The notes under the pieces were generated by a model that was not told the origin of the DNA, did no database searches, and saw only the letters and a list, made by a program, of their open reading frames with translations. This document shows, in pieces, positions 22,558 to 28,080 of a stretch of DNA of 34,570 bases. Origin of the DNA: a virus. Lineage: Duplodnaviria; Heunggongvirae; Uroviricota; Caudoviricetes. The stretch lies in IMG/VR virus record IMGVR_UViG_2554235190_000007, one strand, 5' to 3'. Every line of letters starts with the position of its first letter. Positions within the stretch are counted from its first letter, which is position 1. The position numbers and the translations under genes were made by a program.

Positions 22558-23355
22558 TCAATGAACGGTATCGAGCAGCTTTAACAGCTCAGGGAATCGG
22601 GATTCGAAGAAATGCGGCTGCGTCTCGCGCGGATTTGCAGGACTGGTGATGTTCTTGCCGAACATGCAGCCTTTCGCCGTCAGCGACCAGAATTTTTTGA
22701 TGTTGTTAATCGCGGTACGGCTGTATCGTTCGCGTTGTTCAACGATCCCCAGCTTCGCCATCTGGTGATATGCCTGATTAGCTGTCAGGCAGATACCATA
22801 CTGCTTCAGCAGTGCACTCAGTGACAGCGTGGGGCGGCTTGAGCCATCAGGCGCGTCAGCAGGAGCATCAATGGCATAGCGCGGTGCCAGATTCGGTAAG
22901 CCAACAGCCTCCTGGAGTTTCTGACAGGCACCAAGCACTGAAGAGTTAGACAGGTTTAACTCCCGGCGCATAAAGTCCAGCAGGATCACGCCAGCCTGCA
23001 TCTTGTCAGCAGCCTGCCCGGATAATTTTTCCGGTGTGCTGGTTACCATATCGAAAGTACGGATCACCTTCAGATGGAATGACGGGCTGATCCACATTGC
23101 ATAGGCATACACCAGTTCTTTGCAGACATACGTCCCTTGGTTATTTCCGCCACGAATAACGTTAACTGGCGCTATATTGACCGAGTTGCAAATCTGCAAC
23201 TCGCTTATTAAACGTTCGGTTTGCTCATTGCGGAGCCAGAATGCAGGCTTATGTTTATCCAGAGAACCGGCAGCCCTGTGCAGATCGTTCAGGCTGTAAC
23301 GCCCATAAGCATCACGACGAACTTCAATACCATCAATAACCATCAGATTATTCAT
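22558..23355 (-). CDS. KilA-N domain protein
   Basis: 265 aa; N-terminal region MNNLMVIDGIEVRRDAYGRYSLNDLHRAAGSLDKHKPAFWLRNEQTERLISEL matches the KilA-N pattern common in enterobacterial prophages. Confidence 0.6.
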   Translation of the reverse strand: MNNLMVIDGIEVRRDAYGRYSLNDLHRAAGSLDKHKPAFWLRNEQTERLISELQICNSVNIAPVNVIRGGNNQGTYVCKELVYAYAMWISPSFHLKVIRTFDMVTSTPEKLSGQAADKMQAGVILLDFMRRELNLSNSSVLGACQKLQEAVGLPNLAPRYAIDAPADAPDGSSRPTLSLSALLKQYGICLTANQAYHQMAKLGIVEQRERYSRTAINNIKKFWSLTAKGCMFGKNITSPANPRETQPHFFESRFPELLKLLDTVH

Positions 23356-23374
23356 ACTTCGTTTCTCCTCTTAA

Positions 23375-23764
23375 TCAGGCGGCTGCACCCGCCGGTTTCT
23401 CGTACTTACTGATAGTGATCTCGACCTTCCCTTCCGGGATAACCGGTCCCCACTCCACCAGCATTCTTTTCACCTGACTGTCGTCTTCCCACACACCCGC
23501 GTGGGTCAGGGCGTCAAACAGCGCCTTGTTATAGTTGTCCAGATCGCGGATCCGGTTATCCGGAGGAAACAACACGATCTCCACTGAAGCAGGTGCCGAC
23601 GTTGGTTTTGGCAGACGACGTAACTGCTCAACTATTGCTGCACACGCCGCGCTCTGGAATTTGCGCCCCGCCGCGCTTATCAGGCTCTTACCAGCAAACG
23701 CCCCTTTGTTGGGGTGTCGCCAGTACGTGTTCACGCTGGGCGGAAAAGGCAGGATCAGCTTCAT
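23375..23764 (-). CDS. rusA: Holliday junction resolvase RusA
   Basis: 129 aa, MKLILPFPPSVNTYWRH...DLDNYNKALFDALTHAGVWEDDSQV, the RusA signature; typical nin-region gene. Confidence 0.85.
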   Translation of the reverse strand: MKLILPFPPSVNTYWRHPNKGAFAGKSLISAAGRKFQSAACAAIVEQLRRLPKPTSAPASVEIVLFPPDNRIRDLDNYNKALFDALTHAGVWEDDSQVKRMLVEWGPVIPEGKVEITISKYEKPAGAAA

Positions 23765-24087
23765 ACTTTCAGGCCCCTCTCATGTAACCAGTGGGCTGCA
23801 CGCAGCCTGGCGTTTTCCTCACCGGCAAGCAGTGAGCGGATAATCCCGACCGCCTCGCTGCCGTCGTCCTTCACCGCGGTATGAAGCGTTATCCCCCGTG
23901 CCACGCCACGCTTTATCGTGATGACGCCTTTTTTCTCCAGTGCGCGAAGATGCTCCACCGCTGCATTCACTGAACGGTATCCCAGCATGGTAGCCACCTC
24001 CTGATTGGTTGGCGGGAAGCCACGTTCTTTCTGATAAGAAATCAGCATATCCAGCACCTGCTGCTGGCATTGAGTTAATGTCGTCAT
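23761..24087 (-). CDS. LexA N-terminal DNA-binding domain protein (no peptidase domain)
   Basis: 108 aa; MTTLTQCQQQVLDMLISYQKERGFPPTNQEVATMLGYRSVNAAVEHLRALEKKGVITI aligns well with the winged-helix domain of LexA ([58 protein letters not shown], from memory), but the protein ends before any S24 peptidase domain. Confidence 0.6.
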   Translation of the reverse strand: MTTLTQCQQQVLDMLISYQKERGFPPTNQEVATMLGYRSVNAAVEHLRALEKKGVITIKRGVARGITLHTAVKDDGSEAVGIIRSLLAGEENARLRAAHWLHERGLKV

Positions 24088-24737
24088 GCCGCCATCTCCC
24101 TGACCAGTTTTTCCGCCTGCTGGCGAACCTGCGCCAGAAAGGCCTCACCACATGCCTCAAGTTCATCGCGCCCGATGTAGCTGATTGCCGGTCCCTTCCA
24201 GGTCTTGTCGAAAACAGCAATAGCACCAGCGAAGAAAGCGCCTGTCGGTACCTGCTTCTCGTCTTTCGGGATAAACCAGACAGGCAGTTCAAAACCAATA
24301 CGCCCGCGAATAAAAGCAATATGATCTGCATTTTCCGGCCACCACACTTCGCTGGTGGCAGCTTTGATCAGGAAAACATAGCGCCCGCCTTTATCACGCA
24401 TGGCACTGGCATGCTTCATGATGTAACGCATGCCGGTGATGTATTGCCCCTCATGCTGACTGGCGCGGCTGTATGGGGGATTACCAAAGGCAGCACCTTT
24501 AAGCTCCGCAAGACGTTCTGACCAGTCATGCGCCAGCGCGTTGTCTTCCGCCGTGTAATACGCGGCACATTTGGCGTTATCACCGTCAGTGAACAGATCC
24601 AGAACAAACGGGCCAAACAGGGTGTTAATTCCCCAGAAAATGTTGTCCGGCGTGCGCCACTGATCGCCCACTTCCTTCAGTTCATGGGCTGGTTTGTTCC
24701 GCAGTTCCACCAGCGCCTGGCAATATTTATTACTCAT
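24084..24737 (-). CDS. phage-type N6-adenine DNA methyltransferase (Dam family)
   Basis: Contains the NPPY catalytic motif (GNPPYSR) and a phage-Dam-like N-terminus (NKYCQALVELRNK...WRTPDNIF). Start placed at the ATG overlapping the upstream stop (TAATG) rather than the track GTG at 24770. Confidence 0.75.
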   Translation of the reverse strand: MSNKYCQALVELRNKPAHELKEVGDQWRTPDNIFWGINTLFGPFVLDLFTDGDNAKCAAYYTAEDNALAHDWSERLAELKGAAFGNPPYSRASQHEGQYITGMRYIMKHASAMRDKGGRYVFLIKAATSEVWWPENADHIAFIRGRIGFELPVWFIPKDEKQVPTGAFFAGAIAVFDKTWKGPAISYIGRDELEACGEAFLAQVRQQAEKLVREMAA

Positions 24738-25231
24738 TAAGCCCCCACGTAATTCCCTGACAGATACCACTCTTCACCCGATGCAGCGCGCTTGCTGCTT
24801 TTCCGTAAGCACCGCTCACGACGCGCCAGAAAATTGTTTCGCTCTTGCTGGGAGTGGCTTTCACGGAATGCCGCCATCCACACCGTTGCAGCACGACGGT
24901 ATAAGCCCCTGGACTCCAGTTCTTCCGCCTGGCGGGTCAGGCACAAAATCTCCCGCGGGTCGTTAGTGCCGACATAGAAATTGCGCACAGGTCTGGTTTC
25001 ACGAACTGGTTGCGGTTCCGCCTCCTGCGCTCTCTCAGTCAGGCGCGGGAAATGTCTGCGTGTATCCCCTTCACAACGGTGAGCCACACGACCACTCTGA
25101 CGTAACTTGCTTGCTGACTGCAGAACGCGCTGCCGTGAGTAACCTGCAAAAGCATCCGCAATGTCTCCGGAAGTACACCCCGGATGGGCTTCAATGTATT
25201 TCTGAACTTCATTCAAAAGACTCATGATCAC
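24737..25231 (-). CDS. PerC-like transcriptional regulator
   Basis: 164 aa; the region AEELESRGLYRRAATVWMAAF matches the PerC-family core as I recall it. GTG start in the track (an ATG lies 2 codons in). Confidence 0.45.
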   Translation of the reverse strand: MIMSLLNEVQKYIEAHPGCTSGDIADAFAGYSRQRVLQSASKLRQSGRVAHRCEGDTRRHFPRLTERAQEAEPQPVRETRPVRNFYVGTNDPREILCLTRQAEELESRGLYRRAATVWMAAFRESHSQQERNNFLARRERCLRKSSKRAASGEEWYLSGNYVGA

Positions 25232-26169
25232 CCCCTGAATCCTGCCGGGATCTGGCTGTAGTCCACGTTGTCGTAACTGGCTTTGAAGTACGGGTCTTCG
25301 CGTTTTTCGGTGTACGTGCTGACGGACGGCGATAAGCGCAGGGAAAGCTCATCCCATTTTTCCCGCAGCTTCGACGGGCTGAGCACGTTACGGCACCAGA
25401 ACGGATCGCGGCTGACGCGGCTGTACATCTCGCAGATTTGTTTGTGAGTACGACCATCCTGCACACACATCAGGCGAATTTCGTTTGCCCAGGCTGTCCA
25501 GTTCGGTTCTTTGGGACGAACCACCTCGCCGTCACATTCGGCGGCCTGCTCGTACAGGGCGATGATTTTTTTCCAGAGCCACTGTGCGCAGGTCAAATCA
25601 TCCTGCGTTCCCCACTGGCGCTTTTTAGGGCTGAATACAACCGCATCAGGATGGCGAGTTAAAAACTCCTGTTCAGCCGTCTGCGTGTCCGGTTGCGAAG
25701 CGTCCGGACGAGAAGTTTTTTTATCTGACGGATCATGTTTTGATTTTACTGACGGATCCCCGCCAGATTCTGACGGGTGAAAACCCGCTTTTTTGCCAGA
25801 TTTCGACGCATCAAATTTTGACGGGTCAGATTTTGATGCGTCAGATTTTGACGGGTCAGAATCTGACAGTTGAGAAAATGCCGCTGCCTGAAGCTTCGCA
25901 ACGTTAAGCTGATAAACATTCGACGCATTGCGGTTACCCTGGCGACGCGCCTTACGCGTTAACCAGCCTTCTGCTTCCAGCCGTGCGATAGCCGTTCTGA
26001 CGGTACTCATCCCCGCGCCAATCTGACGGGCAATGGTTTCAATTGATGGCCAGCACACACCTTCGTCATTACTGAAATCAGCCAGGCGGGCCATAATTGC
26101 CACGCTGGATAATTTCATGCCTGACGCAGCGCAACCATCCCATACATAGCCGGTTAATTTAGTGCTCAT
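25228..26169 (-). CDS. replication initiation protein (lambda O-like organisation, winged-helix N-terminus)
   Basis: 313 aa; N-terminal HTH-like region (SSVAIMARLADFSNDEGVCWPSIETIARQIGAGMSTVRTAIARLEAEGWL), central Ser/Asp/Pro/Lys repeat linker encoded by tandem 15-bp DNA repeats, C-terminal domain; in the replication position between CII-like and nin-like genes. Confidence 0.55.
   Translation of the reverse strand: MSTKLTGYVWDGCAASGMKLSSVAIMARLADFSNDEGVCWPSIETIARQIGAGMSTVRTAIARLEAEGWLTRKARRQGNRNASNVYQLNVAKLQAAAFSQLSDSDPSKSDASKSDPSKFDASKSGKKAGFHPSESGGDPSVKSKHDPSDKKTSRPDASQPDTQTAEQEFLTRHPDAVVFSPKKRQWGTQDDLTCAQWLWKKIIALYEQAAECDGEVVRPKEPNWTAWANEIRLMCVQDGRTHKQICEMYSRVSRDPFWCRNVLSPSKLREKWDELSLRLSPSVSTYTEKREDPYFKASYDNVDYSQIPAGFRG
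25796..25870. repeat. tandem 15-bp direct repeats (candidate iterons) inside the replication initiator gene
   Basis: Five head-to-tail copies of a 15-bp unit (plus-strand consensus TCAGATTTTGACGGG, variants TCAAATTTTGACGGG, TCAGATTTTGATGCG, CCAGATTTCGACGCA, TCAGAATCTGACAGT) with two more degenerate copies at about 25741..25777. Confidence 0.5.
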
Positions 26170-26178
26170 GACCGACCT

Positions 26179-26517
26179 CTATTTCCCTGAATTTACGACG
26201 AAACTGTTCGAGCGGGCTGAAGCACTCATGCTCATAGTCTTCGCGGAGGTAGATAACCCGTTGTGTTTCCGGCTCCCAACGAATGACTCTGACGGGTACT
26301 CCGTAGTGATCTTTGAACCAGCGGTTAACTTGTCGCAAAGGACTGTCTCCTTCTGCCGGTTGAAATCACCCACAGCCCACTCTGCAAAGCTGTGGGTTAC
26401 AATTTCCCTGTCACCTGGTACATTCACTGCATAGCAATATTCCACCTTCGCTTTTCCACCCGGTACAGGAAGCGCAATCAGTTGCGAGCGACGGTAGTGT
26501 GTTGTTAAACTGTTCAT
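26179..26517 (-). CDS. hypothetical protein (112 aa) between CII-like and replication genes
   Basis: ATG overlapping the upstream stop (ATGA) and ending 10 nt before the replication gene start, with GAGG upstream of that start; strand and coupling support a real gene. No family recognised. Confidence 0.4.
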
Positions 26518-27405: not shown

Positions 27406-28080
27406 ATGAAAACAATCCATGACATCCGGCGGTCTAACGCCAGAAAACTGAGAGATGGTGTTGGCGGGAATTCTTCCTTTGCCACTATGATTGATCGCGA
27501 GCCAACCCAGACCAGCAGGTTTATGGGAGATGGTGCTACTAAAAATATCGGTGACAGCATGGCACGACACATCGAAAAATGTTTCGACCTGCCTGTCGGA
27601 TGGCTCGATCAAGAACACCAGACAACGAACATCACAAAAAAACCTGATGTTTCAATCACTAATAAACAAATCACATTAGTCCCTGTCATATCATGGGTAC
27701 AGGCCGGAGCATGGAAAGAAGTTGGATATTCTGAGGTTGATTTGAGCACAGCAGAAACGTATCCCTGCCCTGTCCCCTGTGGGGAAATGACTTATATCTT
27801 GCGGGTGATAGGTGATTCAATGATTGATGAGTACCGCCCGGGAGACATGATTTTTGTCGATCCTGAAGTACCTGCCTGCCACGGTGACGACGTTATTGCA
27901 TTGATGCACGATACAGGTGAAACCACCTTCAAAAGGTTGATAGAAGATGGGACACAGCGTTATCTCAAAGCGTTAAACCCAAACTGGCCTGAGCCTTACA
28001 TTAAGATCAACGGTAATTGCTCTATAATTGGTACAGTGATTTTCTCAGGAAAACCAAGAAGATACAAAATCAAAGCCTAA
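27406..28080 (+). CDS. cI: CI-type prophage repressor (HTH plus S24 LexA-like peptidase domain)
   Basis: 224 aa; N-terminal HTH, Ala-Gly autocleavage site (WVQAGAWKE), Ser/Lys dyad context (VIGDSM ... TTFKRL); divergent from cro across the operator region; ATG start with no Shine-Dalgarno. Confidence 0.85.
   Translation: MKTIHDIRRSNARKLRDGVGGNSSFATMIDREPTQTSRFMGDGATKNIGDSMARHIEKCFDLPVGWLDQEHQTTNITKKPDVSITNKQITLVPVISWVQAGAWKEVGYSEVDLSTAETYPCPVPCGEMTYILRVIGDSMIDEYRPGDMIFVDPEVPACHGDDVIALMHDTGETTFKRLIEDGTQRYLKALNPNWPEPYIKINGNCSIIGTVIFSGKPRRYKIKA

Follow-up and report, generated by a model that had tools for sequence, protein, structure and literature searches.

Does a run of 15-bp repeats inside a phage replication gene serve the protein that it encodes, or the DNA itself? 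The question arises for IMG/VR virus record IMGVR_UViG_2554235190_000007, a 34,570-nt stretch that was analysed whole and is here called the window, in which an O-like replication initiator gene of 313 aa (25228-26169, minus strand, identified from its open reading frame (ORF) and its matches to HTH_36 and phrog_391) holds such repeats between 25763 and 25866. A sequence-only reading had taken them for iterons and had proposed that the gene contains its own origin in the manner of lambda O and ori. We judge it likely that the element is the replication origin of an SfII/SfIV-like lambdoid prophage, situated within the linker-coding part of its own initiator gene, and comparison among homologues indicates that the 15-bp repeats almost certainly serve a lambda-style origin as the sites bound by the initiator. 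Every sequence-level prediction of the lambda O/ori arrangement that was tested held, and that reading appears well supported.

Iteron array and distal site

The array was delimited by repeat finding, a core pattern scan and a position matrix built from 289 in-phase units of non-identical homologues, and comprises five contiguous 15-bp iterons at 25796-25866 (minus strand). With a period of 15, Tandem Repeats Finder (TRF) places the repeats at 25797-25860 (4.3 copies, 81% matches, score 86); it also lists a period of 30 (2.1 copies, 88%, score 100). A second repeat-finding method recovers the same 15-bp copies. A 30-bp super-repeat was rejected despite its higher TRF score, as the alternation of spacers is not preserved in homologues (the spacers of 733R5 are, in order, ACA, ACG, ACG, GCG, GCG, CCC, and GCG); this leaves 15 bp as the repeat unit. 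On the coding (minus) strand the unit reads as five codons, xxx-TCA-RAA-TCT-GAx, combining an 11-bp quasi-palindrome, TCA(R)A-W-TCTGA (TCAGA-W-TCTGA), with a 4-bp variable spacer. The five cores, of the form TCA(R)A-W-TCTG(R), lie on that strand at 25796-806, 25811-821, 25826-836, 25841-851, and 25856-866, with half-sites spaced alternately 6 and 9 bp, so that a dimer could use either pairing.

A distal sixth iteron, TCAGAATCTGG, found by the core pattern scan and through homologues, lies at 25763-25773 on the same strand, its centre 33 bp from that of the last array unit; most homologues have the perfect palindrome CCAGAATCTGG at this site. The core pattern YCRRAWTYTGR has 12 strand matches in the window, against an expectation of 1.79 ± 1.63 and a maximum below 12 in all 100 shuffles; 11 of these fall on the six sites at 25763-25866, and a single further match lies elsewhere in the 34.5 kb. 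No other repeat array of similar size or score is present in the window, the remaining TRF rows being short, with ~2 copies. The five contiguous repeats of the sequence-only reading are thus confirmed, in a refined register. It had also listed two degenerate flanking copies, one of which is the good sixth core; the other (~25741-25758) is not an iteron and belongs to a two-copy GATC repeat described below.

Array and distal site are separated by an A-tract/T-tract spacer (25774-25795, minus strand; coding strand CAAAAAAGCGGGTTTTCACCCG), of which the TTTT-ACCC part is kept in homologues and which could conceivably bend the DNA. In the same interval, the antisense (plus) strand at 25774-25787 carries a terminator-like hairpin, CGGGTGAAAACCCG and then CTTTTTTG, which was set aside because it is absent from homologues. 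The repeats do lie, as had been stated, inside the initiator ORF and encode the linker SDSDPSKSDASKSDPSKFDASKSG; array and downstream block together occupy codons ~102-150, in the inter-domain linker.

Constraint on the DNA rather than on the peptide

If the repeats are only coding sequence, they would be a low-complexity Ser/Asp/Pro/Lys linker made by slippage, owing its regularity to recent tandem duplication and having no function as DNA. This explanation draws some support from the AlphaFold2 model, in which aa 103-163, between the winged-helix domain and the helical C-terminal domain (C-domain), are predicted to be disordered (predicted local distance difference test score (pLDDT) <50), and from copy-number changes by whole units among near-identical phages, as replication slippage gives. 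We compared 83 non-identical homologues (seven phages and ~75 bacterial genomes of many Enterobacterales genera, with 52-100% identity in the N-terminal domain (N-domain)), of which the 75 with a recognizable linker-delimiting peptide anchor were used for codon usage. Ser is encoded by TCA or TCT in 85% of cases in the linker as compared to 19% (N-domain) and 30% (C-domain), and Lys by AAA in 96% as compared to 59-65% in the two domains. The TCA, AAA/GAA, and TCT codons persist across genera even though synonymous sites in the N-domain are saturated: at four-fold-degenerate sites of conserved residues, the information content is 0.31 bits in the N-domain (n=32, saturated), as against 1.46 bits for the downstream block (n=8).

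The 289-unit matrix shows the same at single-base resolution. Third codon positions within the core are 94% conserved, matching first and second positions, whereas the third position of the fourth codon and the entire fifth codon vary freely, with A, P, T, G, R, K, V, or H as the fifth residue; conservation tracks the edges of the 11-bp core rather than the codons. In KpnBHU6 the DNA core is unchanged under the peptide units PKSGR/SESEP/SESGR/PESER. phiP27 has two copies of the distal element, as the 20-nt sequence TTTGACCCTTCAGAWTCTGG, set 32 nt apart and read in frames 0 and 2, so that one copy encodes FDPSDSG and the other LTLQNLD. With synonymous sites fixed, the peptide variable, and two frames in use in phiP27, the array does not behave as a purely protein-level repeat, and the disorder of the linker in the AlphaFold2 model itself makes a peptide-level cause of the nucleotide conservation unlikely. 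The pattern indicates purifying selection on these bases at the level of DNA, not protein. The sequence-only reading had named as its refutation a linker conserved in homologues without the DNA periodicity; the opposite was seen, the DNA motif being kept where the peptide is not. We therefore consider a slippage-made linker very improbable.

Constraint on nucleotides could also act on RNA, if the array formed a long hairpin that controls how the initiator mRNA is translated or how stable it is. RNA of the coding strand over 25700-25885 does fold at -58 kcal/mol (z = -4.2 versus shuffles), and there is a weak match to an Rfam model of a miRNA hairpin (mir-5880), which at 30.7 bits lies far under the gathering score of 97. 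However, arrays with their units in natural order are no more stable than random permutations of them (48 homologues, mean z +0.3), from which it follows that the hairpin is a by-product of palindromic units, and the conserved downstream block is AT-rich and unstructured. A function in the message is in our view extremely improbable.

A conserved GATC block and a candidate unwinding element

Downstream of the distal site, GATCCGTCAG(W)(W)AAAA, a repeat that contains GATC, is present twice on the minus strand at a distance of 24 bp (25719-25758; copies at 25743-58 and 25719-34, both reading GATCCGTCAGWWAAAA in the window), for which the chance expectation is 0. The block consensus, TTTTgACCCgnCAGAATCTGGnGGgGATCCGTCAGTAAatTCAAaacaaGATCCATcAGntAaaaaa, was found in 81 of the 83 homologues, and within it the GATC sites (25731 and 25755 in the window) are fixed in 81/81, as are the synonymous sites of GAT (81/81), GTA (81/81), and TCA (73/73). 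Overlapping these repeats, directly downstream of the distal site, is a candidate DNA-unwinding element (25711-25750), by nearest-neighbour stability the least stable 40-mer of the gene (72.5% AT, z = 3.43). An adjoining AT-rich region is what the sequence-only reading had proposed to look for, and its position is general: in 73/81 homologues the least stable 40-mer of the gene begins 0-19 nt past the first GATC. No DnaA box is present in 24901-26500.

Two genes past the initiator is a Dam-type N6-adenine methyltransferase gene (24084-24770, minus strand; PF05869, 7.8e-46), and a Dam homologue lies at most 1.5 kb downstream in 35/80 related loci. The fixed GATC pair together with a phage Dam gene hints at control of initiation through methylation and SeqA.

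Lambda and phi80 each have a palindrome to the right of the AT-rich region, TCGTCAGAGAATTCTGGCGAATCC in lambda (L174 563-585) and TCGTCCGAGAATTCTGACGAATCC in phi80 (L177 8781-8803), which resemble CCGTCAGAATCTGGCGGGGATCC of the window (25753-25775). Providencia homologues with a lambda-O-like C-domain have both elements, with TCGTCGCAGAATTCTGACGAATCC downstream of the block. The likeness could be due to chance or to a shared origin component.

Copy number, modularity, and specificity

Iteron number was expected to vary among relatives, and it does so by whole units. Among 80 viral contigs with identical N-domains there are 5-8 sites (six in 70 of the 80), always differing by whole-unit steps. 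As the sites are read as codons, iteron number can change only by whole 5-codon units.

A mosaic junction at 25691-25724, seen in partial phage matches (phiNP matches only 25691-26168, and mEp460_4F5 only 25228-25724), joins a module of N-domain and origin to exchangeable C-domains. The same N-domain, array, and block are found joined to at least five unrelated C-domain classes: Phg_2220_C (59 homologues), lambda-O-like (17), phiP27-like (2), and two singletons. These classes were assigned by best hit, single-linkage clustering of the C-termini having merged classes through a shared tail. Conversely, a sister subgroup (P0035/L178) has a near-identical C-domain and downstream genes of the same kinds, yet differs in the recognition helix (STVKSAIA versus STVRTAIA in the window protein), in the wing (RKVGGRNVSNIY versus RRQGNRNASNVY), and in the cores, which are TCAAC-N-GTTGA / TCAAATATTGA with the 15-bp period kept. 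Site sequence therefore travels and changes with the N-domain, independent of the C-domain, and this joint variation of core and N-domain also speaks against a linker shaped by slippage alone.

Two distant homologues show more elaborate, enlarged arrays. In L087, from a soil Proteobacteria metagenome-assembled genome, three 33-bp repeats, CCTCCAGTATTTAGAGCCACAAGTGGACTTGAA, bracketed by CCAGAATCTGGA sites, lie at gene nt ~350-490. In L082 (Tatumella saanichensis), a 60-bp super-repeat of four different 15-bp units occurs ~3 times at gene nt ~330-540.

The initiator protein and known systems

The identification of the gene as a replication initiator, also part of the sequence-only reading, holds at both ends of the protein. 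The whole protein matches phrog_391, “replication initiation O-like” (1.6e-135), and its N-terminus is Pfam HTH_36 (PF13730; aa 23-70, 4.2e-11). In the AlphaFold2 model, residues 1-100 (25870-26169, minus strand) form the only winged-helix domain of the protein, with the order helix-helix-helix-helix-strand-strand-helix and block-mean pLDDT of 64-89, and this domain is the presumed iteron reader. Solved-structure and fold searches returned only generic MarR-like winged helices, with no initiator-specific match. The C-domain (aa 167-278; 25336-25671, minus strand), delimited by BLASTP and pLDDT, is homologous to those of lambda O (1e-25, with a conserved stretch at aa 182-277) and phi80 gp15 (2e-25), and its pLDDT is mostly 86-93 over aa 189-278 (~75 around residues 211-220); it is presumed to recruit the helicase.

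The lambda origin offers the closest parallel. In both systems the origin lies within the initiator gene, in the linker between DNA-binding N-domain and C-domain; several dyad-symmetric initiator sites are followed by an AT-rich region downstream; the C-domains are homologous; the initiator gene comes after cro and cII in the rightward operon; and the initiator stop overlaps the start of the next gene. The annotated sites of lambda and of phi80 occupy the same relative position in the gene as does the window array, each set again followed by an AT-rich stretch. The window thus presents what characterizes a lambda-type in-gene origin, namely an inter-domain position, at least three localized dyad-symmetric sites, and an AT-rich region directly downstream. 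There are also differences. The lambda N-domain is Phage_rep_O (PF04492), to which the window protein does not match. Lambda has four annotated 18-bp iterons at 20/24/23-bp spacing (iterons of 19 bp in the literature), whereas the window has a distal site and five contiguous units of 15 bp, each with an 11-bp core. The AT-rich block of the window bears two conserved GATC repeats, and its next gene is PerC-like, whereas that of lambda is P. Of the marks of the lambda O family proper, the gene therefore has the homologous C-domain, and neither the PF04492 N-domain nor a P-, DnaC-, or DnaB-like follower.

The P position is taken by a 164-aa PerC-family protein (24737-25231, minus strand; Pfam PerC at aa 100-151; phrog_1324, “transcriptional activator”), whose GTG start overlaps the initiator stop (GTGA; stop 25228-25230), an overlap also present between lambda O and P. 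The six ORFs scanned downstream of the initiator (22558-25231) include no P-, DnaC-, or DnaB-like gene. The trio of initiator, PerC-like, and Dam genes is also present in ST64B, mEp460, and SfII.

Phage phi80 (JX871397) likewise has an in-gene array, of four annotated gp15 sites, followed by an AT-rich stretch. Its N-domain is Phage_rep_O, its sites (TTCCCGAAAACGGGAA) measure 15-16 bp and recur at 20-21-bp spacing, and P-like gene 14 comes next; it illustrates that lambdoid initiators sharing a C-domain bear different iterons matched to different N-domains. Since a Pantoea homologue is named “Replication protein 15”, phi80 gp15 was considered as the same type and rejected, the C-domain alone being shared.

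The Shiga toxin (Stx) phages 933W and P27 have six-iteron origins, the number of iterons varies among relatives, extra coding iterons lengthen the O protein, and plasmids were no longer established once the p27 iterons carried synonymous mutations (Kozlowska et al. 2020, PMC7466680). These resemble the window in having coding sites whose number differs between related phages, and differ in having true lambda-type O proteins and iterons (ATCCCTCAAAACGAGGGA); the HTH_36 type is absent from that study. The P27 of Kozlowska et al. was considered as our phiP27 (L17) and rejected, because P27 has a lambda-type O.

Other O-like initiators with a winged-helix HTH_36 N-domain (SfV/mEp460, ST64B Sb42, Min27 O, ZF40 gp14, Vibrio phage D75, and Klebsiella RAH1) also have dyad-symmetric tandem repeats in the linker DNA, followed by a shared block with two to three copies of GAACCAGTCA, which resemble the two GATCCGTCAG copies of the window. 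Their N-domains are only 35-45% identical to that of the window protein, each has a different repeat, of 21-24-bp period and unrelated sequence, and in some a DnaB-like or P-like gene follows.

Iteron plasmids (pSC101, R6K, RK2, and pPS10 RepA type) have multiple initiator sites beside an AT-rich unwinding region and an initiator with a winged helix. Plasmid iterons, however, are 17-22-bp direct repeats outside the rep gene, usually accompanied by DnaA boxes, and the Rep protein has two winged-helix domains. The window sites are palindromic and coding, have a 15-bp period, lack a DnaA box within the interval scanned, and are paired with an initiator of one winged-helix domain; the locus does not fit a plasmid iteron origin of the RepA/pi/TrfA type.

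Proposed mechanism and alternatives

By analogy with lambda O and ori-lambda, the initiator would be made from the rightward early pR transcript through cro, cII, and the initiator gene. Its N-terminal winged-helix domain, probably as dimers, would fill the palindromic cores, building a multimeric nucleoprotein complex on the five-plus-one sites. This complex, together with supercoiling and transcription through the site, would then melt the AT-rich GATC block at 25711-25750, upon which the lambda-O-like C-domain would recruit the host replicative helicase. What appears distinctive relative to lambda is the other family of DNA-binding domain, the short contiguous iterons in 15-bp phase, the GATC unwinding block, and the missing loader gene.

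Several points weigh against an origin of this kind. There is no adjoining helicase-loader gene, and the AT-richness is modest, at 72.5% over 40 bp. For a winged-helix dimer, a palindrome of 11 bp (5+1+5) whose half-site centres are 6 bp apart is short, and the array is equally compatible with the register TCTGA-N4-TCARA, at a half-site distance of 9 bp, although the distal site CCAGAATCTGG, being isolated and a perfect palindrome, favours the 5+1+5 register. With a 15-bp phase (~1.4 helical turns), adjacent sites face roughly opposite sides of the helix, which sets the array apart from lambda with its 20-24-bp spacing. The GATCCGTCAG block also codes for an invariant DPS(V) peptide, and its conservation could be partly at the protein level, an explanation opposed by its fixed synonymous sites. 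Finally, the evidence for origin activity and for binding to the sites is comparative throughout.

DNA-level constraint taken alone is silent on what the sites do, and they might instead be a cis-acting element of another purpose: autoregulation or a transcription roadblock, a partition or packaging site, or a recombination hotspot that makes the mosaic junction. Plasmid Rep proteins commonly autoregulate through repeats, and the junction here is only ~40-70 bp away. Against this, sites together with a conserved low-stability AT-rich block, placed between the domains of an O-like initiator, are the specific anatomy of lambdoid origins; the window has no second array comparable to this one; the immunity/replication region, as scanned, holds no partition genes; and a junction beside the origin is itself a prediction of lambda-type module exchange. 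We regard such another purpose as improbable.

It is conceivable, though we doubt it, that the locus exemplifies a distinct origin design common to a large HTH_36 class of phage initiators, with short palindromes packed at 15 bp, a GATC element independent of specificity, and no phage loader. On that design, the ~1.4-turn period, with neighbours on opposite sides, would suggest a continuous initiator filament rather than a lambda-type O-some, and the lack of a phage-encoded helicase loader would imply direct capture of host DnaB/DnaC. The GATC-bearing element, for unwinding or loading, would have been kept across different iteron specificities, with Dam methylation/SeqA control a possible feature.

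Distribution and significance

A 211-bp segment containing the putative origin is present in 1950 of 5426 complete E. coli genomes (about a third), annotated only as “helix-turn-helix domain-containing protein”, and is part of the serotype-converting Shigella phages SfII and SfIV. Neither the SfII nor the SfIV record has an origin feature, and the SfIV genome paper makes no mention of an origin or iterons. Literature on SfIV/SfV origins, HTH_36 iterons, and replication modules, searched to the exclusion of the Weigel and Seitz 2006 review, yielded no account of this origin, and the experimental literature found concerns lambda-type O proteins only. An origin within an initiator gene is thus of a textbook kind, while for this particular origin no description was found.

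The likely origin of a very common prophage replicon can now be placed within ~150 bp. The locus provides an example of dual coding, in which a protein linker and a protein-binding DNA array appear to share the same bases and iteron number evolves in 5-codon steps; codon-optimizing or recoding the initiator gene would be expected to destroy the origin. N-domains matched to their iterons, with TCAGA or TCAAC half-sites, may find use in studies of initiator specificity or as orthogonal replicons. Should the doubtful distinct design of the HTH_36 class prove right, about a third of complete E. coli genomes would carry an uncharacterized type of origin.

Genomic setting

As a lambdoid prophage of the Shigella SfII/SfIV type, the window agrees with the SfII record in gene order. 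The initiator gene (942 bp) has 99.8% DNA identity to SfIV and 98.8% to SfII. Leftwards from cI (27406-28080, plus strand) come cro, a CP76-type cII, a small ORF, and the initiator gene, followed by the PerC-like gene, the Dam methyltransferase gene, a LexA-DNA-binding-like gene, RusA, and KilA-N. The cI gene is flanked by five dyads of ~17-19 bp, similar to TGTACC-N5-GGTACA, three between cro and cI (27320-38, 27353-71, and 27372-88) and two past the cI 3' end (28125-43 and 28145-63), which are probably the OR and OL operators of the immunity region.

In some database proteins the initiator is fused to other domains, namely PerC in P0003 (477 aa) and recombinase, tail, or antitermination domains elsewhere. 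Most of these are from single short contigs and probably represent frameshifts, misassemblies, or prophage truncations. In L061 (E. coli ECDA1023) the initiator is broken after residue 79 and runs into unrelated sequence.

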